Below, in pieces: positions 1-27,207 of a stretch of 64,000 nt of DNA. Both the position numbers and the translations under genes were made by a program. Position 1 is the first letter of the stretch; each line of letters opens with the position of its first letter. The DNA comes from Planctomycetota bacterium. Lineage in GTDB: Bacteria; Planctomycetota; GCA-002687715; CAIWVZ01. The stretch lies in the NCBI GenBank assembly GCA_044222185.1, contig JBGANV010000001.1:2016001-2080000 (forward strand), written 5' to 3'. Below the pieces are notes generated by a model that saw nothing but the letters and a program-made list of their open reading frames with translations, did no database searches and was not told the DNA's origin.

Positions 1-976
1 TGCGAGCGTCGGTGATGCGGTCCGTCGTCTCGGAGACGCGGTTGCGAAGCCCGGACATGAGATCGGCCATCGCGTGCGCGGCCATGGCTCCCTTGTCACT
101 CTTGCCGTTGACTTCGTGGCACTGCGCGCAGGCCAGCGGCTTCCAGCCTTCCGTGACCACGTCCGACGTCTCCTCGATGTCGTGGTATCGATGGCAGCTG
201 GTGCATTCCTGCATCTTCCCGGCGGTCGCGGCGGCAAAGTGCGGGGAACGCCTGAAGTAGTCCCGCGCGGCGACGTGGCATTGCCCGCAAACGTCCGCGA
301 CTTCCGTGACGCCTGCGGGCCGCGCCCCGTGCGCCGAGTGGCAGTCACTGCAGTTCGGAAGTCGCAGCTGCTTCCCGCTGAGCAGCCCCTTGCCGTGAAC
401 GCTCTTCGAGTACTTCTCGAAGACGTCGGCCGTGAGCTTGTACGGCTTCATCCGCTCGACGTCTGCATGGCAGCGCGAGCAGGTCACGGGCACCCGCGCC
501 CGATACGTCGGCGACTCGGGATCAGTCTTGCTGCGGACGTCGTGGGCCCGGTGGCAGTCGATGCAGGTCGGGACGTTCTTGTCGCCCTTCTCCATCAGCG
601 CCTTGCCGTGCGGGCTACGCTGGTAGTACGCCAGCTGTCCTGTCGGCAGTCCGTAGCGGAACATGGCATCGGGGTCGCTGTGGCAATTCCCGCACAGCTC
701 CACGACGGCCTTGCCGCGCGGCACGCCCTTGAATGCGGGGTTGTCGATGCACGCGGCGCGCGTCCCGATCGAGGGATCGCCGCCATGGCAGGTGACGCAA
801 CCGACACCGGCGTCCGCGTGGACGCCCGTGACGTGCAGCGCCGCTTCCTTGCCGTGACACACGGCGCACGCCTTGTCCCCCGTGGGGCGGGTCGTCGTCT
901 GTCCGGGGGCGAGGGCCGCTCCCCAGACGAGGGCGATCGACAGGGCGACGACCGAGCTGACCAGCGTGGTCCTCAT
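1..976 (-). CDS. Nonaheme cytochrome c, module 2 (3' end truncated by window edge)
   Basis: Absent from the ORF track; translated by hand from ATG 976 (ATGA overlap with the cyt b stop). Signal peptide MRTTLVSSVVALSIALVWGAALAPG, then 9 CxxCH (CAVCH, CVTCH, CGNCH, CIDCH, CSRCH, CSDCH, CGQCH, CTSCH, CAQCH). Colinear paralog of 3200..4558. Confidence 0.92.
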   Translation of the reverse strand, partial: MRTTLVSSVVALSIALVWGAALAPGQTTTRPTGDKACAVCHGKEAALHVTGVHADAGVGCVTCHGGDPSIGTRAACIDNPAFKGVPRGKAVVELCGNCHSDPDAMFRYGLPTGQLAYYQRSPHGKALMEKGDKNVPTCIDCHRAHDVRSKTDPESPTYRARVPVTCSRCHADVERMKPYKLTADVFEKYSKSVHGKGLLSGKQLRLPNCSDCHSAHGARPAGVTEVADVCGQCHVAARDYFRRSPHFAAATAGKMQECTSCHRYHDIEETSDVVTEGWKPLACAQCHEVNGKSDKGAMAAHAMADLMSGLRNRVSETTDRITDAR

Positions 977-2307
977 GACAATCCCGCTCCGTGGATGGAC
1001 AACGCCACCAACCCGAATAGGAGGGCGATCCCGATTGCCGGGGTCAGGTAGGGACGCTTGGGCCTGCCGTCGAAGTGCGTATCGAGCATCGGCCAGATCA
1101 AGGCGACGATCACGACGAGCCACAGGCCTGCCGTGACCAGGACCGACAGCGTCGGCGGCACCAGGTCCTCCAGTCCGTGGAACCACAGGACGTACCACGG
1201 GCGGGTGGTGGAGGCGATTCGGTGGAACTGGTCCGGTGCTCCATTGATCGGTGGCGGAAGCCACGCTGACAGGAGCACCAAGGCGCCAGCCATGACGAGG
1301 TTCGTGCCCAAGATCCTCAGGAAGTGATTGGGGAAGAACGTCCTTCCCGCAGGTCCCGGCGAGATGGCGACCACTTCCTTGACGCGTGGGTCACGGCTCA
1401 GTGTCGCGGCAAGCTCGGAACGGCAGCCCTCGATGTGGAACACGGCACGTCCCTCCAGCGCTTCCTGGCGGAGCTGGACGTTCTCGGCTTCGATCTGTGC
1501 GCGGAGCACGGCGACTTCCGCCTGCGTGGCGTCGACCCGGAGTACCGCGAGCATGGATTCGTTGGGCGGTTCGCCGCCTCGCGGCGGAACCGGTGGCGTC
1601 AAACCGTGGCGCCACACGAGTCGCAAGTGCGTCGAGAGGAGGAAGAACAGGGTCCACGGCAGGAGGATCACGTGAAGCGCGAACGCGCGCCCCAGCGCCG
1701 CGTTCGAGAGATCGGTCCCGTCGGCGAAACGTCCGAGGAACGCTCCGATGATCCCGATCCCGGTCCCCGGGCGGAGGGCGCGGGCACCGTTCCAGTAGGC
1801 GGCCTGATCCCACGGCAGGAGCGTGCCCGTGAAATGAAGGCTGAGGACCACCGGGAGAACCAGGAGGCCGACGACCCAGTTGGCCTGCCGCGGCGCTCGG
1901 AACGCCCGGCTGAAGAAGGCGCGCAGGACATGCACGGCGACGAGGACCACGAGCAGTTCGGCGGCCCAATGATGGGTACCCCGGACGAGCCAGCCGGCGG
2001 GTAGCTCGGCCGTGATCTCCAGCACGCTCGTGTGCGCCGTCTCCGGATGGGCCTCGTAATGGAAACTGAGGAGGATTCCGGTACCGGCGAGAACGAACAC
2101 GAGGAACAGGGCCGCAGGTCCGAAGACGTGCATCCAGCCGACGCCTCGGTAGATGGGCCGACGCCACGCACGCGCGATGGCTTCACCGGGCCGAAGCCTG
2201 TCGTCCAGCGGGTGATACAGGAACCCGACCCACCGCAACAGCGCACCGACGGTGCGGCTGTCGACACTGGACCCGAGCCAAGCCCGCAAGCCTTTGAAGA
2301 ATGCCAT
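973..2307 (-). CDS. Cytochrome b (b6 + subunit IV fused) of Rieske/cyt b complex, module 2, with inserted ACT/ferredoxin-like domain
   Basis: GWLVRGTHHW..H, FTGTLLPWDQAAYW, FALHVILLP..H (four heme-b His); subunit IV-like FFPNH..RPWYVLW; ~64-aa soluble insertion at 1363-1554. Confidence 0.9.
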   Translation of the reverse strand: MAFFKGLRAWLGSSVDSRTVGALLRWVGFLYHPLDDRLRPGEAIARAWRRPIYRGVGWMHVFGPAALFLVFVLAGTGILLSFHYEAHPETAHTSVLEITAELPAGWLVRGTHHWAAELLVVLVAVHVLRAFFSRAFRAPRQANWVVGLLVLPVVLSLHFTGTLLPWDQAAYWNGARALRPGTGIGIIGAFLGRFADGTDLSNAALGRAFALHVILLPWTLFFLLSTHLRLVWRHGLTPPVPPRGGEPPNESMLAVLRVDATQAEVAVLRAQIEAENVQLRQEALEGRAVFHIEGCRSELAATLSRDPRVKEVVAISPGPAGRTFFPNHFLRILGTNLVMAGALVLLSAWLPPPINGAPDQFHRIASTTRPWYVLWFHGLEDLVPPTLSVLVTAGLWLVVIVALIWPMLDTHFDGRPKRPYLTPAIGIALLFGLVALSIHGAGLS

Positions 2308-2474
2308 CGCGCTACTCCGTCGTCGTCAGGGCGGCGAACGATCCCGCACACCGATTCCGCTCCCCATGCGCACAAAGCCGCGGAGGCATCACCGCACTCC
2401 GCCACCCCGCGGCCGGCGCGGGACTCGATCGTGGTTCGATTCCATCCCTGCCAGCCTGGCGCCTCGAAAAACGA

Positions 2475-3128
2475 TCACGCGTGCGTCTTCACGTACACGC
2501 GGCCATCGATCACGGCGACGGGGAACGTCCTCAGCGGCCTCGGCGGCGGACCATGGAGGACGTTCCCGAACACGTCGTAGGCCGCGCGATGACAGGGGCA
2601 CACGACCTGGTCGCGCCGGGCGTCCCACTCGACCTGGCACACCTCGGAGTGAGTGCAGATGCTCGCGAGCGCACGATAGTCCTTGGCAGCCGTGCGGACG
2701 ACGAGAACCGGAGTGCCCTCCGCTTCGACCGTCCGCCATGGACGCTTGTCGAAGTCGTCGACCGTGCCGGCCGGGATGACGTCGCGGCGCGCCCGTCGAG
2801 CGCCCTTACCGAGGAAGAACCCCCCGGCAATCGCGGCGGCAGCGGCGGCGAGCACCGTCGTCAGGACGCCGATCACGACGCCGAGGAAGCTCCGTCTCGC
2901 TGAGAGCTGCCTCGAAGTCCCAGGCGCCGGCATGGAGACGAATCGCTCGACCGCTGGGTGATCCGCGAGCGCGGCCTCGACGGCGCCCTCGTCACGGCCG
3001 GCAGCCACGAGGAGCAGCGCGTTCGAGTTGCCGGTCACGAGTTGCGCGGTGCAACCGAGCCCGGCGATCCGTTCTTCGAGGTCGCGCCGCGCGTCCACCG
3101 CGATGCCGGGTCGAATGATGATGATCAT
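2475..3128 (-). CDS. Rieske [2Fe-2S] protein, module 2, with N-terminal DAHP-synthase-like ferredoxin/ACT domain
   Basis: Start MIIIIRPG at 3128; internal Tat-like ARRSFLG plus TM helix; CTHSEVC and CPCHRAAY boxes; GPPPRPL. Confidence 0.9.
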   Translation of the reverse strand: MIIIIRPGIAVDARRDLEERIAGLGCTAQLVTGNSNALLLVAAGRDEGAVEAALADHPAVERFVSMPAPGTSRQLSARRSFLGVVIGVLTTVLAAAAAAIAGGFFLGKGARRARRDVIPAGTVDDFDKRPWRTVEAEGTPVLVVRTAAKDYRALASICTHSEVCQVEWDARRDQVVCPCHRAAYDVFGNVLHGPPPRPLRTFPVAVIDGRVYVKTHA

Positions 3129-3199
3129 GTCCAGTCTCTTCGTTTTCAGATCCGCGCCAGGGGCGCCGCGGGCGGCGCTGGCGCCGCCACCGGTCCGGT

Positions 3200-4558
3200 C
3201 TACCCGGCCTTCGCCGCCGATGCCTCGACCGGCAGCGGCATGCGACGAATGACGACGACCAGCACTCCGATCACGACCAGGATCAGCGCGAGCGACCAGA
3301 CGAGCCACACGCGCCGCGCCGTGTACTCGTCCATGGCGGCGTTCGCCTGGAGCTTCACCTTGTCGGTCACGGCACGACCGACGGCGACGGCCTCGTCGAC
3401 CGGCTTCGCGGAGAACGTATGCACCAGCGAACGTGCATTGGTCAGGGCTCCCCGGGCCTTCACGAGTTCGAACCTGGAGGTCCGAACTTCCATTCCACGG
3501 CGCTCGGCGTCCGCGATCATTCCCTCGGCCACGGCGATCTCGGACTTCAGACCTTCGATCTTCCCGCGGATTCCCTCGGCAACCTTCGCCCCCGACGCGG
3601 GAGCGCCGAATCGGCTGTCGTTGTGACACTTGGCACAAACGGCAGCCGAATCCGTACCGATCATCTCGTCGGACGGCTTGTGGATGTCGTGGTAACCGTG
3701 GCACGTGGCGCACCCGGGGAGCTTGACCTCCTCGAACTGGTGCTTCATGCGCGTGCCGGAAAACAGCTCGGCGATCTTGCCGTGGCAGGTGCCGCAAGCG
3801 TTGGCGACCGATCCGACTTCAGGCGGAACGGCGCCGTGGTTGCCGTGGCAGTCGTTGCACGTCGGCGCGCTCACGTCGCCTTTCTTCAACATCGCGACGC
3901 CATGCACGCTCTTCTGCCAGAGATCCAGCTGATTCGTCGGCAGCGGTGCGTCGTGGTGCTTCACGCCCGCCATGCGCTGCGTATCGGCGTGACACTTCCC
4001 GCAGGTCGTCGCCACGTTCGTCGCGTACACGGGCGACGCGAGGTCCTCGACTGCCTTGATCCCGTGGCTGCCGTGGCAGGACACGCACGTCGCGACCTTC
4101 TTGTCGGCGGACTCCTTCAGGCGCTTCCCGTGGCCGCTCGTCCAGTACTCGGCGACCTGATCCGTGCGCGGCGACGGCTTGTACTTGCGCATGAACTCGA
4201 TGTCGGAGTGGCATCGGCCGCAGAAGCCGGGCACGTCCGCCGGCGACTTGATCGCGCGGAAGCCATCTTTCTGGCTGTGCGCGTCGGCGTACTCCTCGCC
4301 TTTGGGATTGCCACCGTGGCAGTCCTCGCAGCGAAGGCCGCGCTGCCAGTGATAGTCGGCGGCGAAGTCCTTCTCCGAGACCATGAAGTGGCGGTCCTTC
4401 TCCTCGAACCGCTCGGGATCCGCATGGCACGAAAGACATCCGGACGTGGCCGGCTTGCTCTCGGCCGCTGCAGGCTTGTCCTGGGCCACGAGCATGACGC
4501 CGCAAACCGCGATGCACGCGAGGAGCCATGGGACGCGGATTCGTGTTGGTGTGCTCAT
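3200..4558 (-). CDS. Membrane-anchored nonaheme cytochrome c, module 1
   Basis: Signal peptide, 9 CxxCH, coiled region and C-terminal TM (VWLVWSLALILVVIGVLVVVI); ATGA overlap with cyt b stop at 4555-4558. Confidence 0.93.
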   Translation of the reverse strand: MSTPTRIRVPWLLACIAVCGVMLVAQDKPAAAESKPATSGCLSCHADPERFEEKDRHFMVSEKDFAADYHWQRGLRCEDCHGGNPKGEEYADAHSQKDGFRAIKSPADVPGFCGRCHSDIEFMRKYKPSPRTDQVAEYWTSGHGKRLKESADKKVATCVSCHGSHGIKAVEDLASPVYATNVATTCGKCHADTQRMAGVKHHDAPLPTNQLDLWQKSVHGVAMLKKGDVSAPTCNDCHGNHGAVPPEVGSVANACGTCHGKIAELFSGTRMKHQFEEVKLPGCATCHGYHDIHKPSDEMIGTDSAAVCAKCHNDSRFGAPASGAKVAEGIRGKIEGLKSEIAVAEGMIADAERRGMEVRTSRFELVKARGALTNARSLVHTFSAKPVDEAVAVGRAVTDKVKLQANAAMDEYTARRVWLVWSLALILVVIGVLVVVIRRMPLPVEASAAKAG

Positions 4559-5673
4559 TCCATCAGCCCCCACACGGTCATGCCGCAGAAGAACAGCGCG
4601 GAAATCCAGGCGAGCGCCACGAGGATGCGACGTCCGAGCCCGGGTCTCTCACTGCGGTCGATGAACGGCACCAACAGCAGCGCCAGTCCGCACAGCCCGA
4701 AGAAGAGGATCCCGAGCACCTCACCCTCCATGCCGAGGATGTGTGCCGGCAGCTTCTTCAGCGCCTGGAACATGAAGAGGAAGTACCACTCGGGGCGGAT
4801 GCCCTCGGGCGCGCTTCCGAACGGGTCGGCCTTCTCCCCGAGCTCCCAGGGAAACAGTGCGGCGAAGGCTGCAAGCACCGCGAGGGCGATGTACCAGCCG
4901 ATCATGTCGCGCAGGAGGAAATGGGGGATGAACCCCATCGACGGGACCTTCGCTTCGCCGCCGTGCTTCTTTGCGACGTGCTCGGGCACGCTCATCCCGT
5001 GTTTCTGCACGAGGTAGAGGTGGAATCCGAGCAGCGCGAGCGTCGTCAGCGGGAGGATTGCGATGTGCAGTGCGTGGAATCGGGCGAGCGTGTCGCCCGT
5101 CACGTTGTCCCCCGCACGCGTGAAGACGAGCAGATCGTGGCCGATGATCGGCACCACGCCGACGATCGCCGTGCCGACGCGCGTCGCGAAGAACGCCAAC
5201 TGGTTCCACGGCAGCAGGTATCCGCTGAACCCGAAGGCGAGGAAGATCATGAGCAGCAGGAAGCCGGTCACCCACGTGATCTCACGGGGACGCCGGTACG
5301 CCCGCATGATGAACGCCGTCAGCATGTGGATGAACAGCACGCCGATCAGCAGGTTGGCCGCCCAGGAGTGGATCGAGCGGATGAGCCACCCGAAATCCAC
5401 CTCCGTCATGATGCGCTGAACGCTCTCGAACGCGCCGTCAGGAGTCGGCTTGTAGAAGAGGCTCAGGAGAATTCCCGTGATGAACTGGATCGCCACGAGG
5501 AACAGCGCCATTCCACCGAGGAAGTAGAAGGCGGACGTCTTGTGGATCGGGACGCGCTTGTGCGCCGCGAGCTCGCGCGCAGCGTCCAGCCCCAGTCGTT
5601 CATCGAGGAAGGCCGACAGCTTGCCCTGCGGAGCCGGCGCGGCCTTCGCGTCCTCAACTCTTGCGGGAGACAA
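4555..5673 (-). CDS. Cytochrome b (b6 + subunit IV fused) of Rieske/cyt b complex, module 1
   Basis: GWLIRSIHSW..H, FSGYLLPWNQ, RFHALH..H, intact IRPEWYFL; TTG start preceded by AGGAGG. Confidence 0.95.
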   Translation of the reverse strand: MSPARVEDAKAAPAPQGKLSAFLDERLGLDAARELAAHKRVPIHKTSAFYFLGGMALFLVAIQFITGILLSLFYKPTPDGAFESVQRIMTEVDFGWLIRSIHSWAANLLIGVLFIHMLTAFIMRAYRRPREITWVTGFLLLMIFLAFGFSGYLLPWNQLAFFATRVGTAIVGVVPIIGHDLLVFTRAGDNVTGDTLARFHALHIAILPLTTLALLGFHLYLVQKHGMSVPEHVAKKHGGEAKVPSMGFIPHFLLRDMIGWYIALAVLAAFAALFPWELGEKADPFGSAPEGIRPEWYFLFMFQALKKLPAHILGMEGEVLGILFFGLCGLALLLVPFIDRSERPGLGRRILVALAWISALFFCGMTVWGLME

Positions 5674-6130
5674 GGATCTCCTCCTGTCCGGGCTTCCCCC
5701 GCAACGTGACCTTGTACATCTCCAGCGGCCGCGGCGGCGGCCCGGACACGTTCCGTCCCATGAGGTCGTACACCCCGTTGTGGCAGTTGCAGAAGATGTC
5801 GCCGCGATCCTGCCGGTGTTGCACCGTGCAATCGACGTGCGAGCAGACGGCGTTCAGCGCACGGACCTCGCCATCCTTCGTCTTGATGACGAGGCACGGC
5901 TTGCCACCGAAGTTGAACGGCGCGGGCCAGTGGCCGTCGGCGTCCGGCTTGAGTTCGTTGACCTTGTAGGGCGCGACGGCTTCGAGGTTGCCACCGCTGA
6001 TCTCGCTGGACTTGGGCCGCAGGAACCGCGCAACCGGATAGAAGAGCATGCCAACGGTGGCGACGACCCCGGACCCGAGCATCCGGAGCAGGCCGCGACG
6101 TGGGATCGGAATCTGTTCGGGCTGGCTCAT
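5654..6130 (-). CDS. Rieske [2Fe-2S] protein, module 1
   Basis: Tat-like PRRGLL plus TM; CSHVDC and CNCHNGVY; GPPPRPL; AGGAG RBS. Confidence 0.95.
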   Translation of the reverse strand: MSQPEQIPIPRRGLLRMLGSGVVATVGMLFYPVARFLRPKSSEISGGNLEAVAPYKVNELKPDADGHWPAPFNFGGKPCLVIKTKDGEVRALNAVCSHVDCTVQHRQDRGDIFCNCHNGVYDLMGRNVSGPPPRPLEMYKVTLRGKPGQEEILVSRKS

Positions 6131-6237
6131 CAGTTCTCCTAGTCTCTGCGCGGTGGGAGGGACACCCGAGCCTGAACAGGCCCGGGTGTGGCGGCGTCAC
6201 GAGGGAACGCCGCAGCGAGAGAGTCGTTCCGTACGGC

Positions 6238-6879
6238 TCAGTGCTTGTTCTTCAGCTCGACGTGTTGATGGAGCTTCGTCGCGTCTTTGATCGACGTCGC
6301 GTAGTCGAACTTCCGGTCCTTGTCGAACGTCGCGCCCTTGTCGTTGTGGCACGTCTTGCAGTTCTCTTCGGTCGGCTCGATCATGCCGAGTTTGAGGACG
6401 TCCGCCTTCGCGAACTTCTCGTTGTCCTTCTTGAACGGACCCGTGAGGCTGCCCGGTCCGTGGCACGATTCGCACTGCACGCCTTCCATCGTCGGCGCGC
6501 GCTTGGTCTCTTCCTCCGTCCAGGCCTTGCCCTCGACGACCGCCGGGTAGCCGCCCGCCAGACCGTAGCCCGTCGTGTGGCACGCGAGGCACTTGGCGTC
6601 CTTGGTGTAGTCCTTCTTGGGGTCGAGTTTGTACTTGGTCTTCGCCTCGACCGCCTGGTCAGGCTTCAGCAGGTCGAAGGACTTGGCCATCGGCGTCTTC
6701 TTCCAGCTGGTGAACTGCTTGAAGTGACACTTCTTGCAGCTCTCGGCCCCGACGTACTGCGGCTTGTCGTCACGCAGGCAGCTGCCCGTCGAGTCGTCGG
6801 ACGTGACCGGAGAGAGCGTGCCGGCTCCAAGGAACACGGCACACAGGAGAATTGCGGGAATCGTGAACCTCATGATCAT
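6238..6879 (-). CDS. Periplasmic tetraheme cytochrome c554-like protein
   Basis: Signal peptide; YVGAESCKKCH, CLACHTTG, GVQCESCHGPG, CKTCH (typical c554-family pattern). Start at 6879 or 6873 after AAGGAG. Confidence 0.88.
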   Translation of the reverse strand: MIMRFTIPAILLCAVFLGAGTLSPVTSDDSTGSCLRDDKPQYVGAESCKKCHFKQFTSWKKTPMAKSFDLLKPDQAVEAKTKYKLDPKKDYTKDAKCLACHTTGYGLAGGYPAVVEGKAWTEEETKRAPTMEGVQCESCHGPGSLTGPFKKDNEKFAKADVLKLGMIEPTEENCKTCHNDKGATFDKDRKFDYATSIKDATKLHQHVELKNKH

Positions 6880-7294
6880 TGCTCCTTCGGACTGGTCGTT
6901 TCGTGCGCTCCATGGACGCCAGGCCCAAGTTCGGACTTCGCAACGGCGACACCCCCGGGGGTGGTCGCACGCCGCATCGGAATGCAAAGGCCGCGCCTGC
7001 CCGTTCGATCCCATGCGGCCAACCCACCGACACCGCGCGCCCCGGGATCCCTTGTGTGACTCATTCGCAGCCTCCGCCGCGCCAGTGAGCCGGTGGCTCG
7101 AGGACTCGCGTCCCCGCCATGGCGCAGCTGAGCTCAGGAAATCGCGTCATTCGGTGTCCCACAACGGCTTCGGCGCAATGTAGATCTGCCCCCAACCCGC
7201 TCATAGCCCGGCCGGCCTCCCTGCGTCGCTTTTGCGAGCGCACTACGCACTGGGCTGTAGCGGAAGTTTCGCACTGCGGTATAGCGGCACGGTT

Positions 7295-8326
7295 TCATCG
7301 GTGGCAAAGGAGACACGACTGTCCATTGTCGGGGTGCCTCATCACGACGTGACACTCGCGGCAGTTTGCCGGGTTCGTCGTGAGGTGCGGCGCGTTCCCC
7401 GGCTTCATGGGCGCCGACGCGTGGCCCGGCGAACCCTTGTGACACACGGCACACCCTTGATCGTCGAAGCCCTCGACGGGCAGATGGCACGAGTTGCAGT
7501 GACGATCGAACGGGCTCCCCCAGGTCGCGGTGTGATTGCGCGGCTTGGTGTTTTCGTGGCACTGGAAGCACGAGTCGGTCGTGTGACAGACGCGGCAGCC
7601 TTCTCGGTCGAGCGACGCCGCGGCCGCATGCCCGTGAAGTCGCCAGAGATTCGTGTGGTTCTGCGGGGCCTCAGCGCGATGGCACGTGTCGCAGTCGGAC
7701 TTCTTGTGGCAGACGGAGCAGTCGACGGGAAGCGGCTCCATGTCGCCCTCCGAGAACTTGCGCCCATGCTCGCGCTTCCAGCCGAGTCGGTGGGACTTGG
7801 GCGCCACGTCACGACGGATCTGCGTGTGGCAGACCGCACAGTCGTTCTTGCCCGGCGCCTTCTGCTCGTGGCACGACATGCAGGCGCCCATCGTCAACGG
7901 TGCGAAGCCCGTGCTCGTCTTCGACTCCGCGACGTCTCCGTGGCACGCCGTGCAGTCCTTCCCGAGCGCAGTCACGTGCTGCGCGTGCGGGAACACGAGC
8001 TCGCGATCCAGCTTGGATGCGTGGGTCCACTTCCCCTTCTTGTCGGCATCGTAGAAGGCCGCGGCGCGCTTCTCAGGCGGCTTTTCGCCGTCGATGTCGT
8101 TGTGACACTCGGTGCACGAGTCGAGCTCGGGCATCCGATTGAACTGCTCGGGTTCGGCACCGTGGCAGTCGGCGCACTCCACCCCGCGTGAGATGTGTGC
8201 GGCGTGGTCGAACTGGGGTCCCGTCGCGCGGCTCTCCGCACCCGGCGAGACATCCAGAACGGACGCGCAGGCCAGGACGCCGAGCATCGTCACGAACACA
8301 CCCGTCGCGATGATCCAGTACCGCAT
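7295..8326 (-). CDS. 13-heme cytochrome c (c3/c7-like N-terminal part), possible lipoprotein; candidate porin-threading wire
   Basis: 13 CxxCH counted in 343 aa; FDHAAH and FPHAQH c3/c7-like motifs; hydrophobic N-terminus ending VLAC. Confidence 0.9.
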   Translation of the reverse strand: MRYWIIATGVFVTMLGVLACASVLDVSPGAESRATGPQFDHAAHISRGVECADCHGAEPEQFNRMPELDSCTECHNDIDGEKPPEKRAAAFYDADKKGKWTHASKLDRELVFPHAQHVTALGKDCTACHGDVAESKTSTGFAPLTMGACMSCHEQKAPGKNDCAVCHTQIRRDVAPKSHRLGWKREHGRKFSEGDMEPLPVDCSVCHKKSDCDTCHRAEAPQNHTNLWRLHGHAAAASLDREGCRVCHTTDSCFQCHENTKPRNHTATWGSPFDRHCNSCHLPVEGFDDQGCAVCHKGSPGHASAPMKPGNAPHLTTNPANCRECHVVMRHPDNGQSCLLCHR

Positions 8327-8335
8327 GCGAGTTCC

Positions 8336-9841
8336 TCAGAAGGTCCAGGTCAATCCGATCGTACCGGTGTGAAAGTCGCCCTCGTCGCCCGTCTCGAATT
8401 CGTATCGGGCGTCGCAGCGGAAGTCGTCAGCGAACAGCCATCGCACCTTCAGGAAGAAGGTGGTGACGTCTTCTCGTTCGGCCACGATGAACAGGTCGTG
8501 CTTGAACAGGCTGTAGTAGCTGCCCAGGCCGAACCGGAGCTTGTCGGTCGGGTGCCAGGTGATCTCGCCGCCGAGGGATGCGGTGTCGTCCCCCGACGAC
8601 TCCCAGATCTCGCCGGTCAGCGCCAGGTCGATCTCGTCGACCGGCCAGCGGAACGAATTCAGCGTGAGCCACCCGCGGACGAACTCGTGGTTGAACGGGC
8701 CCTCGCGGTCGTCGTCGTTCAGGAAACGGCCCGAGACTCCCCCATCGATGCCGAAGTGCGTGTCGAAAAGCTTGGAGCCGTCCAACTGGAATTGGTGATA
8801 GGCGAAGGACGTTCCCAGAACGCCGAAGTACGGGTCGTAGGTCGTGGTGTACTCGGACGTGATCGTCGCCTCGTACCGGTAGGTGGCGCGGATCGAGAGA
8901 TCGTCGGCCGTGTCGTCCCAATAGAGCCGGCAGTTGACGTCCCGCGTCGCGCCATCGACCGTGTCCCATGTGGCCGCGGCGCGCAGGTCCTTCGTGAGTT
9001 GCTGCCGCAGGCCCAACGACGCGAAGTCGTTCACCTCGTGATCGACCCACTCGTTCTTGTCTTCGACGTGAGCGTACCGGATGTCGACGCGCCCGTCGGT
9101 CCACGGCTGGAACGACGCGTCCGCCCCCACGATCCAATCCTCGGAGCGTGAGGACTCGTAGAGGTACTCGGGAACGCCGCCGTAAACGTCGATCCGCATG
9201 CGCCCCAGCGATTCGATGGGTTGGAAATCGACGCGAGCACCGTCCATCAGGTAGGTGAATCCGGCGAAGACGTTCTGTCGCCCCAGGCGGACCCTGCGCA
9301 TCCCGAGAGAGTCGGGCGCAAGAGACCCGGACAGGTCGACGTAGGCCTCGTAGAGCTTCACGTCCACCGAATCGCCGCCGACGTCGTTGAGGGACCCGAA
9401 AGGATTCCCTTTGTTCGAGGCGTCGCCGTCCAGATCCCACGTCAGCCGGCCGAGCATGTGAAAGGCGATCTCGTCGAGCTCAGCCTTTCCACCGTCGAGG
9501 GACAGGTATCCATACAGGTCCTCGTCGTTCCCGTCGTCCGTCTTGCGACCTCGGTAGCTCAGCGAGAGCGACCCGCTGACTGAGTACGGCTGCTCCGTAC
9601 CCACCTTCGCCCCCGCGGCCGCCTTCCCATCCGGCTGTGACTCAGCCGTGCCTGGGGATTTCGTCGGACGGGAAGCGGGCGCGGAGTCTTGCTTGTTCCC
9701 CTCGGACGACGTCGGGCGGCTGTCGCCAGCCGCCCGATCGCCCGCAGCCGTATCCTGTGCGCGGGTCGTTGCCACGCAGCAGAGGTAGATCGCGGCCCCG
9801 AGCGCCACCGATCGCACCATCGCACTTGAAAGAAGAGTCAT
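8336..9841 (-). CDS. Outer-membrane beta-barrel protein (porin of porin-cytochrome complex, MtrB-analogous)
   Basis: Signal peptide; alternating amphipathic beta-strand pattern rich in aromatic and acidic residues; C-terminal GTIGLTWTF beta-signal; directly upstream of the 13-heme gene. Start 9841 or 9820. Confidence 0.8.
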   Translation of the reverse strand: MTLLSSAMVRSVALGAAIYLCCVATTRAQDTAAGDRAAGDSRPTSSEGNKQDSAPASRPTKSPGTAESQPDGKAAAGAKVGTEQPYSVSGSLSLSYRGRKTDDGNDEDLYGYLSLDGGKAELDEIAFHMLGRLTWDLDGDASNKGNPFGSLNDVGGDSVDVKLYEAYVDLSGSLAPDSLGMRRVRLGRQNVFAGFTYLMDGARVDFQPIESLGRMRIDVYGGVPEYLYESSRSEDWIVGADASFQPWTDGRVDIRYAHVEDKNEWVDHEVNDFASLGLRQQLTKDLRAAATWDTVDGATRDVNCRLYWDDTADDLSIRATYRYEATITSEYTTTYDPYFGVLGTSFAYHQFQLDGSKLFDTHFGIDGGVSGRFLNDDDREGPFNHEFVRGWLTLNSFRWPVDEIDLALTGEIWESSGDDTASLGGEITWHPTDKLRFGLGSYYSLFKHDLFIVAEREDVTTFFLKVRWLFADDFRCDARYEFETGDEGDFHTGTIGLTWTF

Positions 9842-10127
9842 GCTCTCGCTCCCGGGATTCCACGCGGGCGGACGCACACCGGCGACTTCGAGACGGATCG
9901 ACCGCCGGGACGCACACTGAGATGCGCGCTGATTATGGGGACCAATTGCGGCAGGCGAATACGACGCACCACGCAAGGGGATCATACGCTCCTGTCCGTA
10001 GCGCGCAGTTCGTATGCGGAGCGGGAATCAGACCCACTGCAAGTCGTACTCGGACCCGCGTACATTCGGCCCGCTCGCAGATTTTGTCGATCACCGACTC
10101 GGAACGCAGTCTCCGGAGGATGGGATC

Positions 10128-13031
10128 ATGAGAGACCTCAGCATGAAGAAGCGGCTCGCTGGTGTGGCACTGATCACGTTGGCCCTCGTCACAGGACTGG
10201 CGTCCTGCAGTGGCGGCGGGGGTGGTGGTGGCGGCGGTGGTGGTGGAGGTGGTGGCGGCGGAACCCCGCCGGTCAATCCGCCCCCGCCGGTCACGCCAGT
10301 CCTGACCGTCTACGACAACATGCCGGGCGTGAACTTCGAGATCCTCGGCCTCACCGGAGGCTCGGGCGCCGGCGGGAACTTCCGCCCAGGCGACTTCATC
10401 ACGGTCAACTTCACCGTGAAGAAGAAGAACGGGACGGCCATCACGGTCCCGGACTTGAACACGGGCAGCATCTACGTGTCCGGTCCAACGTCGAACTACC
10501 AGGTCGTCATTGCCCGCCAGACCGACGTTCGCGCGGTCTCGACGCAGAACACCGACGGTTCCTGGAAGTACACGTTCCTCGTTCCGATCCCGGCGACCTA
10601 CCAGGCGCCGCTGAACGACTCGGCGTCCTTCGGACCGGAGGACGGCGAGATGACGGGCGACGCCCTCGCCTCCGGCACCTACACGGTCGGCATGGAAGGC
10701 TACAAGCTCTACTCCTTCGAAGGCACGGACTACCGCGACGCCGGCAACGCCACGAAGGACTTCCTCCTGGGCACGGCGACGACGATCGAACCGCGTGAGG
10801 TCGTCAAGCAGGAGAACTGCGACCAGTGCCACGTCGATCTCCGCGTTCACGGCGGCGGCCGCAAGGACGTGAAGAACTGCCTGCTCTGCCACACCTCGGG
10901 CTCGGAAGACCGGAACGTCGCGACCGTCGAAGGCGGGACGCCCGGCGCATCCATCGATTTCCGCGTGATGATCCACAAGATCCACTCGGGCGAGCACCTC
11001 CCATCGGTGAACGGCGTGGCGACGAACCCGGACGGCACGCGCAACTACTCCGCGACGCCGACTCCGTACAAGCTCGTCGGCTTCAACAACTCGGTGATCG
11101 ACTTCTCGACGGTGGCCTTCCCCGTCTGGCCGAACCTCACGTTCCCCATGCCGCGTGACTACGGCTACACCGCACTCAACGCCACGCAGAAGGCCCTCGA
11201 AGACACGATGCGCTCGGCGCCCACGAAGTGCGACAAGTGCCACGGCGATCCAGACGGCACAGGTCCGCTCACCGCGCCCGCGCAGGGCACGAATGCCTAC
11301 GATCACCCGACGCGCCGTGCGTGCGGCTCGTGCCACGACGACTGGGATCCGACGAAGCCCTACGGTGCAAACCTCCTCGAGATGCCGCCCCAATCGAACG
11401 ACCAGTCGTGCAGCTTCTGCCACGGCGGCTCGAGCTCGCTTCTGTCGACGCAAGAAGTGCACACGCACCCCATGCTCGACCCCGTCACGAATCCGGGAGT
11501 GAAGGTGAACATGATCGCCGTCGCCGAGTCGGGCACGAACAATGCCGACGGCAGGATCCAGACGGGCGAGAAGGTCGCCATCGCGTTCTCGCTGACGGAT
11601 GACGCCGGTGCGACGATCGCAGCGTCGTCGCTCGGCAGCATCAACGTGGCGATCACGGGTCCGACGACCAACCGCAACCTGCTCCTGAATGGCGCCGTCC
11701 CGCTGGCCGGAATCGGCGCGGGCCCCGTCTACACGATCAACGTTCCGGAACTGGTCCAGCTCGATCGTGCGGGCGTATCCACCGCGGGTATCGACACCTT
11801 CACGACGTCCCGCACGCCGCACTGGAACGTCACCGGCGGTTTGACGTCGGTCCTGGTTCGAACGGCAAGCGGAGTGCAGAGCACGTCCACGGCGGCGATC
11901 CGGATCGCCCAGAATTACATCGACCTCGCGGACGCCACCGGGTTCGCCCGCAACTCCTACGTCGTCGTCGAGGACGGCGTGGCGGGCAAGGAGGAATACC
12001 TCCGCATCCAGTTCGTGGATGGGAACCGGATCTGGTTCGGGTCCCAGGCCTCCACGAGCTTCCAGCCCGCGACCCGCTTCTCGCACGTCACCGGCTCGCC
12101 GGTGCGCGTCGTGACGCTGACGTCGAAGACGGCAGGTACGGACTTCACCGTGAACGCCGCCCTCGGGCAGATCACGGAAGTCAACGAGTTCGGCGCGAAC
12201 AACGTCGTCCTCGTCAACTACGTCTCCGACTTCGTCATGCCGGCGACCTACGGCGCGCCGATCAACGACTCGCCGGACATCGACGAGACGTGGGGCGACT
12301 GGGGTGGCCTCGCAGTCCAGAGCGGCACGTACACGGTCGGTCTCTGGGCTTCGCGCACATTCAGCTACGTCCAGCTGACGGAGACCAACTCGTACCGCGC
12401 GACCTCCGAGAACGCGAACCTCGACTTCCTCGTCGGCACGGCGACGACGCTCACGCCGTCGACCGTGATCTCGTCGGCCGCGAACTGTGACTCGTGTCAC
12501 GACACGGTCTACGCCCACGGCGGCGGTCGCCGCGGCTACGACACGTGCGTCCTCTGCCACGGCTCGGCCGGCGGCGAGGATCGCTCGCGCTACGTGGCGG
12601 CGAATGCGCCCGCGACCCCGGGAGTGAGCATCGAATTCCGCCAGATGCTCCACAAGATCCACCGCGGTGAAGAGCTCGCGAACGCGACCACCTACACCAT
12701 CGTCGGGTTCGGTTCCGGTGCCTACCCGGCGAACTTCGGCCTGAACATGTACCCCGAAGTGGTGTTCCCGGCCTTGCCGGACGGCGTGAAGAACTGCGAG
12801 AAGTGCCACGGCACCGGCAACAACGCGTGGAAGACGCCGATCGACCGCACGCATCCGTCGCAGGCTCACGAGACCAAGAAGTACACGACGGTCTGTGGCT
12901 CGTGTCACGACGGCACCGACGTCGAAGGTCACATGAAGTCGCAGACGAGCGCGAGCGGCATCGAGGCCTGCGGCGTCTGCCACTCGACTGGTGACCAATA
13001 CGGCGTCGATCTACGCCACAAGATCCGCTGA
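10128..13031 (+). CDS. OmcA/MtrC-family decaheme cytochrome c lipoprotein
   Basis: Lipobox GLASC; two pentaheme blocks (10 CxxCH), each with HGGGR..CxxCH and M(I/L)HKIH(S/R)G motifs and each preceded by a beta-rich domain. Confidence 0.9.
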   Translation: MRDLSMKKRLAGVALITLALVTGLASCSGGGGGGGGGGGGGGGGGTPPVNPPPPVTPVLTVYDNMPGVNFEILGLTGGSGAGGNFRPGDFITVNFTVKKKNGTAITVPDLNTGSIYVSGPTSNYQVVIARQTDVRAVSTQNTDGSWKYTFLVPIPATYQAPLNDSASFGPEDGEMTGDALASGTYTVGMEGYKLYSFEGTDYRDAGNATKDFLLGTATTIEPREVVKQENCDQCHVDLRVHGGGRKDVKNCLLCHTSGSEDRNVATVEGGTPGASIDFRVMIHKIHSGEHLPSVNGVATNPDGTRNYSATPTPYKLVGFNNSVIDFSTVAFPVWPNLTFPMPRDYGYTALNATQKALEDTMRSAPTKCDKCHGDPDGTGPLTAPAQGTNAYDHPTRRACGSCHDDWDPTKPYGANLLEMPPQSNDQSCSFCHGGSSSLLSTQEVHTHPMLDPVTNPGVKVNMIAVAESGTNNADGRIQTGEKVAIAFSLTDDAGATIAASSLGSINVAITGPTTNRNLLLNGAVPLAGIGAGPVYTINVPELVQLDRAGVSTAGIDTFTTSRTPHWNVTGGLTSVLVRTASGVQSTSTAAIRIAQNYIDLADATGFARNSYVVVEDGVAGKEEYLRIQFVDGNRIWFGSQASTSFQPATRFSHVTGSPVRVVTLTSKTAGTDFTVNAALGQITEVNEFGANNVVLVNYVSDFVMPATYGAPINDSPDIDETWGDWGGLAVQSGTYTVGLWASRTFSYVQLTETNSYRATSENANLDFLVGTATTLTPSTVISSAANCDSCHDTVYAHGGGRRGYDTCVLCHGSAGGEDRSRYVAANAPATPGVSIEFRQMLHKIHRGEELANATTYTIVGFGSGAYPANFGLNMYPEVVFPALPDGVKNCEKCHGTGNNAWKTPIDRTHPSQAHETKKYTTVCGSCHDGTDVEGHMKSQTSASGIEACGVCHSTGDQYGVDLRHKIR
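10212..10262 (+). repeat. GGN codon run encoding 17 consecutive Gly after the lipoprotein Cys-Ser
   Basis: Mixed ggc/ggt/ggg/gga codons, followed by TPPVNPPPP. Confidence 0.95.
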
Positions 13032-13071: not shown

Positions 13072-13110
13072 GCCCGGGCCCGGTCCTCACGGATCGGGCC
13101 CGGGTCTTTT
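13072..13110 (+). terminator. Rho-independent terminator after the MtrC-like gene
   Basis: Stem gcccgggcccggtcc / tcac loop / ggatcgggcccgggt followed by ctttt. Confidence 0.8.
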
Positions 13111-13262: not shown

Positions 13263-14975
13263 TCACCAGATCAGGATCCGCCGCGAGATGCTGGACGAGT
13301 AGCTGGCACCGGCGAGCGTGATGGGTCCGGAAGCGTCCGCCACGAGCCACTGGGCGAAGTAGCTCGAGAACATCAGCCCGGGCGTGGTCGGAATGGAGAG
13401 CGTCGCCGTCGCTGCGCCGGTCGCGTCGGTCGTCATCAGGCCCAGCGAGCCGACCGGGAGCAAGAGTTGATTCGCAGCCGTGTCGATCCACAGCGTGCAC
13501 CCCGGCACCGCCAGCGGCGCGCCGCCGAGCGAGAGGCCGAGGATGGCCGCGCTCCCCGGCGACGCTCCGGAGATGCCGAGGGTGAACGCCGCATTGCCGA
13601 GCGCCGGAGTTCCTATCGGGACATAGAGCCCGGGACCTGCCCCAGCAACGCAGCCCGCGTGGTCGATGGTCCGATTGAAGCACACGCCGAGTTTCACCAG
13701 CCAACCAAAGTTCGGTGGTGGTTGCGAGCCGTTGGGAATTGGCGCCGCAACCACGACGTCGATGTCACCGTCGCCGTCGACGTCACCTGCGTCTTCTTGA
13801 ACCAAGCTCGACACATTCGCGATGGGATACGGATATCCCGCCGCGACGGGGAGATGCATGACCCCGACCGGCGACGTCGCTGGCGCGAACCGGACGATCG
13901 TATTGAACAGCAAGTACTCCGGATAGCCGTCCCCGTCGATGTCGCCGGCGAGTCGGTCAAATAGCCCCGTCGAAATCGCGGTCGAGCCGCCGAGTGCCCG
14001 GGGCGGCAGCGGCACAACTGCTCCTGTAGCGGAACCCAAGAATGTCCAGAGCGTGTACTGTCCGGCTGAGCCGAAGCCGACAACATCGTCGACACCGTCA
14101 AGATTCACATCTCCTGTTCGCAAGTAGTAAGGCACGGGCGATTGACATGTCGGGCACCACGGCGGTGTTGGAACAGCCACGGACACCGGCTGCGCGAACG
14201 TCAGGGCAGAGGTGTTGGTAAACACGCGCACGCTCGTCGGCCCAGCCGGATCGAAGGTGCTGACAACGATGTCGTAAAGGCCGTCATGGTTGATGTCGGC
14301 GATCGTCACAGCTCCCAACTGTTCGGTCGGCCCGAGCACCAAGTTCGTGGACGGGACGAACGTACCCGCCGACGTCGAATACGAGTAGATCGCGACGACG
14401 CCTGGATACGTGCCCGCAAAATAAGACCCGCCGATAACAAGCTCCGCGCGGCCGTCGCCATCCAGGTCTGTGAGTAGGACTGTGCTCCACCGTACCGACG
14501 CAAGCCCTGTGAAGAAGTTCGAACTTTGCAGAACACCGTTGCCCTGGTTCAGGTGGAACTTCACAAGCTGCCCCGTGACGGTTACGACGTCAGCGAGCCC
14601 GTCTCCGTTGATGTCACCCGTGTCGGCAAGATAGTTCAGGTCGCCGGGAGGGTTTGGCCCGACAGATGGGATCAGGTTGACCGTTGCTGTCCCAAACCCA
14701 CCAGCACCGTCCCCGAAAGCAATCTCGATGAACGGGTCCGCCTCGCTGACGATGGCATCGAGCTTCCCGTCGTTATTCATGTCGCGGAGGAGAATGCCGC
14801 CGTTTGTGGCGTGTTGCCAGATTGGGAAAGGAAGGTTCGCCGGCGACATGACGTAGGCGTAGTTGGGATCGGAAAACACCGACTGTGCCCGGCCCCCGCT
14901 CACCAAGATCGTGAATGCAAGGGTCGCTCCCAGGAGAAACGACGGCGGACGAACGAGAGGAGTCGGCGCGTTCAT
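13263..14975 (-). CDS. Secreted FG-GAP/VCBS-repeat beta-propeller protein with C-terminal Ig-like module
   Basis: Signal peptide ..GGRA|QS; seven D-x-(N/D)-x-DG-x-x-(D/E) repeats; C-terminal module ..YFAQWLVAD..SISRRILIW. Confidence 0.88.
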   Translation of the reverse strand: MNAPTPLVRPPSFLLGATLAFTILVSGGRAQSVFSDPNYAYVMSPANLPFPIWQHATNGGILLRDMNNDGKLDAIVSEADPFIEIAFGDGAGGFGTATVNLIPSVGPNPPGDLNYLADTGDINGDGLADVVTVTGQLVKFHLNQGNGVLQSSNFFTGLASVRWSTVLLTDLDGDGRAELVIGGSYFAGTYPGVVAIYSYSTSAGTFVPSTNLVLGPTEQLGAVTIADINHDGLYDIVVSTFDPAGPTSVRVFTNTSALTFAQPVSVAVPTPPWCPTCQSPVPYYLRTGDVNLDGVDDVVGFGSAGQYTLWTFLGSATGAVVPLPPRALGGSTAISTGLFDRLAGDIDGDGYPEYLLFNTIVRFAPATSPVGVMHLPVAAGYPYPIANVSSLVQEDAGDVDGDGDIDVVVAAPIPNGSQPPPNFGWLVKLGVCFNRTIDHAGCVAGAGPGLYVPIGTPALGNAAFTLGISGASPGSAAILGLSLGGAPLAVPGCTLWIDTAANQLLLPVGSLGLMTTDATGAATATLSIPTTPGLMFSSYFAQWLVADASGPITLAGASYSSSISRRILIW

Positions 14976-14987
14976 GGCTCGCAACCC

Positions 14988-24791: not shown

Positions 24792-24905
24792 GCCCCGCCG
24801 CACCGCGAACGCGGTTTACGCCGCCGCCGTAGACCGCGTTCAAGGTTGCCGATACGCTGGCCGGATCCTGCGGATCCACCGCCGTCGGACCGCGAGTGCA
24901 ACGCG

Positions 24906-27191: not shown

Positions 27192-27207
27192 GGGAGTGAG
27201 GATACCG

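Follow-up and report, generated by a model that had tools for sequence, protein, structure and literature searches.

A 64-kb stretch of a Planctomycetota genome (G000:C1:2016001-2080000, called the window below; G000 is 7.08 Mb in 16 contigs and is 93.8% complete) opens with a cluster of multiheme cytochrome genes. We think, with a probability of roughly 60%, that this cluster encodes a complete chain for extracellular electron transfer (EET), with parts in three layers of the cell envelope and with electrons most likely flowing outward. At the outer membrane, a 22-strand barrel would sheathe a 13-heme cytochrome, which would pass electrons to a decaheme lipoprotein of the OmcA/MtrC type at the surface. 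In the periplasm, a tetraheme cytochrome that resembles c554 would act as the shuttle. The inner membrane would hold four quinol-reactive modules: two types of Rieske/cytochrome b complex, a 16-heme protein with a NapC-type anchor, and a CbcL-like protein with 11 hemes and a b-type domain. We infer the function of the chain and the direction of electron flow from these components.

We counted CxxCH motifs over all stop-to-stop open reading frames (ORFs) of the window and called domains with Pfam and NCBIfam (hits listed at E ≤ 0.01). Four minus-strand ORFs have 9 (2-1390), 9 (3203-4648), 4 (6241-7146), and 13 motifs (7298-8335), and a plus-strand ORF has 10 (10002-13028), for a total of 45. 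The sole other ORF in the window with any such motif has two (24792-27188, +). An earlier annotation of the window by a model (the original prediction) had described 45 motifs, 9-, 9-, 4-, and 13-heme genes, two Rieske/cytochrome b pairs, and a divergent decaheme gene, and we recovered all of these. The minus-strand run extends 4.4 kb beyond the left edge of the window, which adds the genes for the 16-heme and 11-heme proteins and brings the whole cluster (window plus left extension) to 72 motifs. The overlapping start and stop codons that had been reported are also there, as three overlaps of 4 nt and one of 20 nt (which depends on a TTG start); the remaining gaps are 9, 28, 71, 107, 167, and 415 nt. 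The genes are listed in Table 1.

The proposed outer-membrane conduit

Neither Pfam nor NCBIfam matches the barrel gene at E ≤ 0.01, and a profile search of PDB sequences found nothing at E ≤ 1. An AlphaFold2 model, built from an alignment of 21 homologues, has 22 beta-strands (mean pLDDT 76.7, pTM 0.72), which bears out the earlier claim that the gene would model as a large beta-barrel. Foldseek matched this model to large outer-membrane barrels at E ~1e-10; these are only generic types (FimD, AlgE, and Occ porins), and MtrB is not among the top matches listed. The barrel of MtrB has 26 strands. By the standard barrel formula, the C-alpha diameter is ~40 Å with 22 strands versus ~47 Å with 26. 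The MtrB/PioB profile (PF11854) matches neither the barrel nor anything else in G000, and in a sample of 401 Planctomycetota genomes, it detects MtrB/PioB in nine, G000 not among them. Our barrel is found in 81 of the 401 genomes, and its family has 858 clusters (50% identity, E ≤ 1e-3) among 1.84 billion representatives. One homologue (G352:C40:89635-89955) has a sub-cutoff match to MtrB_PioB (19 bits, E 6.9e-4), which hints that the two porin families may be very remote kin.

In an alignment of 39 members of the 13-heme family, all 13 CxxCH motifs are invariant, 12 further histidines are invariant or nearly so, and the lipobox-like Cys20 is nearly invariant. The solved proteins closest to it are c7-type cytochromes and the multiheme ActA subunits of Alternative Complex III. 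MtrA turned up neither among the PDB profile matches nor among the fold matches of this protein, and TIGR03508 (MtrA/DmsE) gives it no hit at E ≤ 0.01 and has no hit above the cutoff in G000. Foldseek returned only ActA chains (TM-scores of 0.28-0.46) for a structural model that is too weak for firm conclusions about the fold.

To describe the neighborhood of the barrel gene, we fetched 40 barrel loci from the phylum sample and took genes within 10 kb as neighbors. In 39 of these loci, a homologue of the 13-heme gene (by tblastn) is adjacent to the barrel gene and on the same strand; in the 40th, the barrel was seen by hidden Markov model (HMM) alone. The barrel is also adjacent to a cytochrome gene in all 30 of the loci from named genomes that we examined, which come from Planctomycetota, Nitrospirota, Desulfobacterales, SAR324, Acidiferrobacterales, Myxococcales, and others. 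(There were 49 such loci; the 19 that we left out were further Planctomycetota loci, some on contigs shared with the sample loci, and short contigs.)

The number of hemes in the partner varies: 13 in Planctomycetota; 19 (in ~500 amino acids, or aa) in Ca. Anammoxibacter (L072 and L074); 11-12 in SAR324, Myxococcales, and other proteobacterial metagenome-assembled genomes (MAGs); and 6-7 (~200 aa) in Nitrospirota, Thermodesulfovibrionales, Desulfobacterales, and Acidiferrobacterales (loci L084-L114 were also surveyed). The range of 6-19 hemes is a natural series for the length of heme wire that one type of barrel accepts.

We also predicted a complex of barrel residues 83-501 with residues 21-343 of the 13-heme protein, without hemes. 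The score was 0.50, and the best of three controls scored 0.00. Of 157 solved complexes, 116 reach the mark that we used, as do 2 of 215 mismatched pairs, and scores that pass the mark yet are at or below 0.60 were obtained for just 18 of the 157 solved complexes and for both of the passing mismatches. At least 55% of contacts are shared between runs, and the partner pLDDT is at least 63. The modeling weakly supports an association between the two proteins, in which the 13-heme cytochrome would be physically inserted in the barrel.

A 22-strand porin, a gap of 9 nt, and a neighboring cytochrome with 13 CxxCH make this a porin-cytochrome (Pcc) pair in the sense of Shi et al. (2014), who describe Pcc porins of 18-22 strands and cytochromes of 5-14 hemes (PMC4245776). 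In Kuenenia (kuste4024/4025) and Anaeromyxobacter, two-gene pcc clusters encode cytochromes of 338-344 aa with 12-14 hemes (PMC4245776), which by the published description are like our 22-strand barrel and 343-aa 13-heme protein. Homologous barrel pairs are present in loci labeled as Ca. Anammoxibacter and Brocadiaceae, so a relation to the Kuenenia pair is likely. The barrel and 13-heme genes thus fit the known two-gene Pcc type, as in Kuenenia. An anammox orthologue is reported to be expressed on electrodes (10.1101/855817).

The decaheme protein scores 263.3 bits against TIGR03507 (the cutoff is 209.3) and matches PF22113 in two stretches (144.8 bits). Among solved structures, it is similar to OmcA (4lmh, 3.3e-11) and MtrF (3pmq, 2e-9). 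Its CxxCH motifs form two pentaheme sets, as expected for domains II and IV of the family (at 226, 246, 363, 394, and 423 and at 782, 802, 885, 918, and 943), and by inspection, its N-terminus has a lipobox-like L-A-S-C and then a poly-Gly linker. The protein is putatively located at the cell surface.

In 17 of the 40 loci, the neighbors of the barrel gene (within 10 kb) include an OmcA/MtrC gene. Across the phylum sample, 40 of the 401 genomes have OmcA/MtrC above the cutoff, and 32 of these 40 also carry the barrel; MtrB/PioB overlaps with this set in two genomes, with weak matches only. Because most genomes with OmcA/MtrC have the barrel and MtrB/PioB is rare, the surface decaheme of Planctomycetota travels with a Pcc-type pair and not with MtrAB. 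For the eight genomes that have OmcA/MtrC and lack the barrel, neither tblastn nor an HMM search (E ≤ 1e-3) turned up a homologue of the barrel or of the 13-heme protein on the contigs with OmcA, but these contigs are short and the absence is unproven. (The A2 HMM does have matches on these contigs, but they fall on the OmcA genes themselves.) The original prediction of a hybrid conduit is upheld, as the decaheme passes TIGR03507 while the barrel and the 13-heme protein fail the MtrB/PioB and MtrA/DmsE profiles.

G000 has a second OmcA/MtrC paralogue (G000:C7:112229-115159; L135 8229-11159, -), a 977-aa ORF with 10 CxxCH that is 58% identical to the decaheme of the cluster. It stands alone, without a barrel or 13-heme gene nearby.

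The inner-membrane modules and a candidate periplasmic shuttle

Both Rieske proteins of the cluster have both cluster-binding boxes (CxH...CxCH). By inspection, the histidine pairs for hemes bL and bH have spacings of 14-15 and are at 102/116 and 203/218 in cytochrome b 1 and at 112-113/126 and 212/227 in cytochrome b 2. The Qo motif is PEWY in cytochrome b 1 (at 294). In cytochrome b 2 it is PWY (at 370), with the glutamate missing, and its orthologues vary (YPWY or PEWY).

The two modules are paralogous, with identities of 41% (the b6 half of cytochrome b), 39% (69 residues of the Rieske protein), and 32% (the 9-heme cytochrome), whereas cytochrome b 1 is 50-53% identical to orthologues from other families. 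This implies that the two types diverged anciently and are not recent duplicates. Type 1 would be a canonical Rieske/cytochrome b complex in which a membrane-anchored 9-heme cytochrome replaces cytochrome c1/f. Type 2 would combine a Rieske protein and cytochrome b with its own 9-heme cytochrome, a degenerate Qo motif, and two ACT-like domains, and is always encoded with the 16-heme protein.

The first of these domains is the N-terminal alpha/beta domain of Rieske protein 2 (~2925-3128), which is conserved in 11 of 11 orthologues. PF18152 (DAHP-synthase ferredoxin-like) matches it at 21.3 bits, which is under the cutoff; 4 of 10 orthologues match, three of them above the cutoff. The second is a related domain at the N-terminus of the subunit-IV-like half (~1360-1560, -); we saw it in 12 of 12 loci, and in 11 the match starts at position 1-2 of the profile. 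The relation between the two was found by profile-profile comparison only (hhalign, 89.5% probability, E 2e-6, 64 columns): BLASTP of the N-terminal domain of Rieske protein 2 against the insert in cytochrome b 2 gave no alignment. A search of the ESM Atlas with the N-terminal domain of Rieske protein 2 gave no usable hit. The paired ACT-like domains of type-2 complexes would lie on the cytoplasmic side. In the portions of the literature examined, we did not find such domains described on type-2 Rieske/cytochrome b complexes, and this conserved complex offers biochemists a specific target.

In our genome, the two halves of cytochrome b 2 are fused in frame, while each half has its own ORF in the 12 other type-2 loci that we examined. 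An independent DNA contig from activated sludge crosses the fusion junction with no differences. The 16-heme gene follows the type-2 genes in 12 loci (L073, L116, L118, L120-L122, L124, L125, L127-L129, and L131; L131 begins inside the 9-heme gene).

The 16-heme protein matches PF03264 (NapC/NirT) at residues 17-108 (40.3 bits; the cutoff is 24.1). It has 16 CxxCH plus two CX3-4CH motifs; the NapC/NirT family has four. The CbcL-like protein was recognized by its architecture: like CbcL, MtrH, and MtoC, it would combine an N-terminal multiheme c-type domain with a C-terminal FdnI/HydC-like b-type domain of ~6 TM helices. Its C-terminal domain matches TIGR01583 (formate dehydrogenase gamma) with E 9.9e-7 and 28.9 bits, far under the cutoff of 115.85. 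CbcL-like genes lie within 10 kb of the barrel in 8 of the 40 loci. The c554-like tetraheme cytochrome is present in 19 of the 40 barrel loci and heads the inner-membrane cassette in other genomes.

The original prediction had counted two quinol entry modules. Both Rieske/cytochrome b sets are indeed present, but with the 16-heme and CbcL-like proteins we count four candidates in the cluster. Two further Rieske/cytochrome b modules, each with an 8-heme cytochrome, are encoded elsewhere in the genome (G000:C1:2127186-2130500, L133; and G000:C14:485583-491708, L134), which makes four Rieske/cytochrome b modules in G000 in all.

Table 1. Genes and other features of the cluster, with positions in the window.
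Feature	Position	Strand	Description
CbcL-like protein, 674 aa	left of window, 28 nt after 16-heme gene	-	11 CxxCH (residues 25-336) followed by 5-6 hydrophobic segments
16-heme NapC/NirT-type protein, 684 aa	left of window, 4-nt overlap with 9-heme cytochrome 2	-	N-terminal transmembrane (TM) helix
9-heme cytochrome 2 (type 2), 428 aa	1..976, runs past left edge	-	signal peptide, 9 CxxCH, C-terminal TM anchor; 325 N-terminal codons in window
Cytochrome b 2, 444 aa	973..2307	-	b6-like half, ~70-aa alpha/beta insert, and subunit-IV-like half in one frame; PF00033 101.7 bits
Rieske protein 2, 217 aa	2475..3128	-	N-terminal ~65-aa ferredoxin-like/ACT-like domain, TM helix, Rieske domain; PF00355 51.1 bits
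9-heme cytochrome 1 (type 1), 452 aa	3200..4558	-	signal peptide, C-terminal TM anchor
Cytochrome b 1, 372 aa	4555..5673	-	b6-like and subunit-IV-like; PF00033 165.7 bits, PF00032 39.1 bits
Rieske protein 1, 158 aa	5654..6130	-	PF00355 49.1 bits; both cluster-binding boxes
c554-like tetraheme cytochrome, 213 aa	6238..6879	-	putatively periplasmic; PF13435 74.5 bits
13-heme cytochrome, 343 aa	7295..8326	-	26 aa per heme, lipobox-like Cys20; putative barrel partner
Outer-membrane beta-barrel, 501 aa	8336..9841	-	signal peptide, ~55-residue disordered linker, C-terminal Phe; 22-strand model
Divergent intergenic region between barrel operon and decaheme gene	9842..10142		301 nt; presumed promoters
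OmcA/MtrC-family decaheme protein (putative lipoprotein), 962 aa	10143..13031	+	lipobox-like motif, poly-Gly linker, 5+5 CxxCH; TIGR03507
Terminator-like hairpin	13072-13105	+	15-bp stem with 12 G-C pairs, T-rich tail; 41 nt past decaheme stop

Are the inner-membrane modules dedicated to the conduit?

The original prediction was to count as refuted if homologous Rieske/cytochrome b modules were not co-conserved with the porin and decaheme genes. Their co-conservation is only partial. A Rieske/cytochrome b module lies within ~10 kb of the barrel, on the same contig, in six genomes from six families (G000, G385, G240, G331, G138, and G113, from f1, f3, f8, f84, f76, and f57, respectively). A named MAG (L073) is a seventh case, with the order barrel, 13-heme, OmcA, c554, Rieske 2, cytochrome b, 9-heme, 16-heme, all on one strand. 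In two more genomes (G320 and G024), a 9-heme gene is beside the barrel, 13-heme, and OmcA genes, with no cytochrome b detected. The 9-heme family is found in 29 of the 401 genomes (E ≤ 1e-20), and 14 of the 18 genomes with a strong match have the barrel, as compared to 81 of 401 genomes overall, although related genomes are not independent.

Linkage is thus recurrent but not universal, and this is the first of several points that weigh against our reading. Only 3 of the 40 sampled barrel loci have a cytochrome b within 10 kb, and the other 37 have no Rieske/cytochrome b genes. Conversely, the cassette occurs without a barrel in the fetched stretch in f37 (L120-L122), in G256, in G077, and in others, and no barrel match at all was seen in the four genomes of f37 that have a 9-heme match (G133, G170, G236, and G252), although these are only 85-90% complete. 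As each can occur without the other, the modules and the barrel are not obligate partners. Also, none of the four other genomes from the same family as G000 carries the barrel, the 9-heme, or the OmcA/MtrC gene; in this lineage, then, the cluster is accessory. (Those genomes, G048, G160, G257, and G332, are 2.4-3.8 Mb, and G000 is about twice as large.) Within the cluster, the 415-nt gap lies between the 13-heme and c554-like genes, so the run may comprise more than one operon. On the structural side, the model of the 13-heme protein is poor (mean pLDDT of 65, and under 50 in the C-terminal half), and the predicted complex with the barrel is weak and lacks the hemes. RNA-library contigs, described below, show that the genes are present and cannot prove transcription, strand, or operon structure. 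A complex that runs a Q cycle requires an acceptor of fairly high potential, which many Fe(III) minerals are not.

In a rival reading, the cassette of Rieske, cytochrome b, 9-heme, and 16-heme genes would be a general respiratory hub of these planctomycetes that serves periplasmic reductases or oxidases, with operon shuffling having placed it near the conduit in this genome and with the CbcL-like protein feeding the conduit instead. The order c554, Rieske 1, cytochrome b 1, 9-heme, Rieske 2, cytochrome b, 9-heme, 16-heme is identical in three f37 genomes (L120-L122) that have no barrel nearby, and other loci have the cassette without the barrel too; CbcL-like genes are more common as neighbors of the barrel than cytochrome b is (8 versus 3 of 40 loci); metagenomes contain many members of the type-1 9-heme family (at least 120 homologues, and the matches listed are all at 50% identity or more); and multiheme Rieske/cytochrome b complexes of planctomycetes have other roles in anammox bacteria (PMC12954380). 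We nevertheless consider a general hub to be unlikely. The linkage recurs in seven genomes, the enrichment of the barrel among genomes with strong 9-heme matches points the same way (with the caveat about kinship given above), and the barrel-lacking f37 genomes still carry OmcA/MtrC. Furthermore, the two other Rieske/cytochrome b modules of G000, with their 8-heme cytochromes, could be the housekeeping ones.

In the reading that we prefer, electrons would flow outward from menaquinol, with Fe(III) or Mn(IV) minerals, humics, or electrodes as acceptors. Acceptors of different potentials would be served by different modules, and the Rieske/cytochrome b modules would contribute proton translocation by a Q cycle. 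The order of the carriers, the tuning to potentials, and a dedicated role for the Rieske/cytochrome b complexes are the parts of this scheme that we infer.

The same hardware might instead carry electrons inward, with Fe(II), reduced minerals, cathodes, or partner cells as their source. Quinone would then be reduced (uphill) by one Rieske/cytochrome b complex running in reverse, and another path would lead downhill to an oxidase. Two bc1 complexes of Acidithiobacillus ferrooxidans have been proposed for such uphill and downhill roles, and having two anciently diverged types side by side would fit opposite directions, as would a type-2 Qo motif without its glutamate. We know of no Fe(II)-oxidizing Mto or Pio system with an MtrC-type surface decaheme, and the presence of OmcA/MtrC here is unlike those systems, which makes inward flow seem improbable, even though the sequence holds nothing that fixes the direction in either case. 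A point in favor of inward flow is that multiheme conduits and CbcL/MtrH/MtoC homologues are considered to be bidirectional (PMC6295460); the two-gene mtr clusters that Shi et al. have described (PMC4245776) go with the Mto and Pio systems on the other side.

A more specific idea, which we hold tentatively and place on the doubtful side, is that EET has a fourth and previously unlisted family of dedicated quinol oxidoreductases, namely Rieske/cytochrome b complexes. Type 2 would form a supercomplex of the Rieske protein, a split or fused cytochrome b, the 9-heme cytochrome, and the NapC-anchored 16-heme protein, gated from the cytoplasm by a heterodimer of the ACT-like domains at the N-termini of the Rieske protein and of the subunit-IV-like half. 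If so, then planctomycetes could couple a proton-motive Q cycle to respiration with extracellular acceptors of high potential and switch the entry module by potential. More generally, Rieske/cytochrome b complexes with long multiheme subunits may feed conduits, which, if true, would change the energy yield that is expected from EET.

Relation to known systems

EET is understood mainly from Shewanella and Geobacter. As proposed, our cluster would share its logic with MtrCAB/OmcA/CymA of Shewanella: a quinol dehydrogenase, a periplasmic carrier, a cytochrome in a barrel, and a surface decaheme lipoprotein. The parts differ, as the barrel has 22 strands and no MtrB_PioB match; the inner cytochrome, with its 13 hemes, is kin to ActA and to c7-type cytochromes and has no MtrA/DmsE match; and, in place of tetraheme CymA, quinol entry would be by Rieske/cytochrome b, by the NapC-type 16-heme protein, and by the CbcL-like protein. 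The Kuenenia and Anaeromyxobacter clusters differ in another way: they have no outer-membrane cytochrome, whereas OmcA/MtrC is attached here and in 17 of the 40 planctomycete loci, and in our cluster the inner-membrane quinol modules continue in the same run. This locus and its relatives point to an OmcA/MtrC surface cytochrome that can work with a barrel and cytochrome that are not of the Mtr type. A survey that needs mtrC, mtrA, and mtrB together would miss this combination. One published survey requires all three mtr genes and reports three phyla; the available portion does not mention Planctomycetes (PMC8805035). Porin-cytochrome genes have been flagged in Planctomycetota MAGs, in general terms only in the portion available (PMC10732223).

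The original prediction had compared the cluster to Shewanella and to other Geobacter systems, and this comparison was incomplete, as it omitted the Kuenenia pair (PMC4245776) and the ext locus of Geobacter (PMC5877670). The latter is a published precedent for encoding a Rieske/cytochrome b core with a porin and cytochromes. In Geobacter sulfurreducens, extHIJKLMNOPQS encodes the porin ExtI, 5-, 12-, 10-, and 4-heme cytochromes, the Rieske protein ExtO, the cytochrome b ExtP, and the membrane protein ExtQ (PMC5877670). It is likewise one conserved locus, in which a Rieske/cytochrome b core is encoded with several multiheme cytochromes and a porin-like protein, and the list of components here is close to it (4-heme, ~10-heme, and 12-16-heme cytochromes, Rieske, cytochrome b, and subunit-IV-like).

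Judging by family models, however, our locus is not orthologous to ext. The ExtP model gives the two cytochrome b genes 203.3 and 154.4 bits (the cutoff is 290), and the ExtN, ExtO, and ExtQ models (from the NCBIfam set NF040967-NF040970) have no match in the locus. Elsewhere in G000, ExtO and ExtN have a weak site on contig 7 only, and ExtQ matches the contig-14 module only (E 4.7e-13, under the cutoff). NF040966, which we considered as a possible Ext family, is MamQ and is irrelevant. There were no Geobacter-named proteins among the listed matches to 9-heme cytochrome 1, which is uninformative about a relation to ExtN. Our cluster also differs from ext in its gene order, in having two Rieske/cytochrome b modules instead of one and an OmcA/MtrC decaheme, and in that no rhodanese or selenoprotein gene was seen in it.

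These differences bear on whether the outer-membrane pair might, like ExtI, act at or in the outer membrane on soluble or colloidal substrates (selenite, tellurite, other oxyanions, or humics) and not on minerals: an ExtI mutant is impaired in reducing selenite and tellurite, not Fe(III) citrate (PMC5877670), Shi et al. suggest that Pcc may act on S0 or selenium oxyanions (PMC4245776), and ExtP is among the best NCBIfam names for our cytochrome b genes. Given that ExtP is under its cutoff, that the other Ext models find nothing in the locus, and that the rhodanese and selenoprotein genes were not seen, we regard such a role as very unlikely. The OmcA/MtrC family, whose presence here also speaks against it, has been characterized on minerals, flavins, and electrodes.

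The ImcH, CbcL, and CbcBA proteins of Geobacter are reportedly tuned to different potentials. Geobacter has several alternative quinol-oxidizing multiheme proteins (PMC6295460), as our bacterium would too, but ours are encoded together in one run and include Rieske/cytochrome b complexes. Zhong and Shi list three known families of EET quinol oxidases, with Rieske/cytochrome b not among them, and report two CbcL homologues in Planctomycetes; the word Rieske does not occur in their paper (PMC6295460). The Rieske/cytochrome b complexes of anammox bacteria (Kuste4569-4574 and Kustd1480-1485), which serve other roles, are similar in having a b6-like cytochrome b, a subunit-IV-like protein, a multiheme (hexa- or octaheme) c subunit that replaces cytochrome f, and additional modules facing the cytoplasm (PMC12954380). 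Ours have 9-heme c subunits, have two ACT-like domains instead of an NAD(P) oxidoreductase, and adjoin an outer-membrane conduit.

As single parts, then, the Pcc-type pair, OmcA/MtrC, multiheme Rieske/cytochrome b complexes, and the CbcL-like and NapC-like proteins are already known. The combination of a Pcc-type pair with OmcA/MtrC, two distinct types of Rieske/cytochrome b, and a conserved type-2 complex that has a 16-heme partner and a pair of ACT-like domains is new within the portions of the literature that we searched, and supplements to those papers could hold such clusters.

Occurrence in activated sludge and in RNA libraries

By the share of words in common, near-identical DNA is present in activated-sludge metagenomes from two studies besides the probable source, and one activated-sludge run (X2) covers all 30 of the 30 bins of the locus. 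(Runs X10-X20, which had small word shares, were left out; X19 gave short pieces only.) Two small metatranscriptome runs, both from one study, contain 35-44% of the sampled words. Contigs from the RNA libraries match the 16-heme, 9-heme 1, cytochrome b 1, Rieske 1, c554-like, barrel, and OmcA/MtrC genes at 99% identity or more, and one contig joins the Rieske 1 and c554-like genes. In RNA runs X6 and X8, no pieces fall on L132 1-2668, which takes in the flank and the larger part of the CbcL-like gene, and the 5' half of the barrel gene is mostly bare as well, but missing cover is not evidence. Since genes of the cluster appear in RNA libraries, this widespread and uncultured planctomycete of wastewater is a candidate respirer of iron, manganese, or humics in activated sludge.

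Other features of the locus and its surroundings

A scan of the locus for sigma-70 promoters gave 0 sites, and an Rfam scan of 20 kb matched no family. There are eight terminator-like sites in the locus, which is no excess over the mean of 9.0 in shuffled sequence; much the strongest of them is the hairpin that follows the decaheme gene.

On the plus strand, 4-9 kb from the decaheme gene, are ORFs for a pair of System II cytochrome c maturation proteins (17341-22454): one within 17341-20655 is ResB-like (PF05140, E 4e-18), and one within 20313-22454 is CcsA/CcsB-like (TIGR03144, 134.6 bits, under the cutoff of 187.6). This pair is plausibly relevant to loading 72 hemes.

Further along are a DUF1592/DUF1588/DUF1587/DUF1595/DUF1585 protein with a PSCyt1 domain (24846-27191, +) and, after it, a DUF1552 (HXXSHH) protein (26719-28551, +), a pair that is typical of planctomycetes. 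Together with the named relatives, these nearby genes place the window in Planctomycetota, in agreement with the original prediction of a probable planctomycete.

Directly past the decaheme terminator is a gene for a protein with FG-GAP repeats (13263-14984, -; PF13517, E 2.2e-30), and next to it are two ORFs without family matches (14988-16022 and 16032-17324, both -). At the other end, to the left of the window, the cluster meets a converging gene for a peptidase C25/PorU-like protein (L002 5560-7527, +; PF01364, E 2.9e-73), beyond which is a B12-binding radical SAM gene (L002 3106-4677, -).

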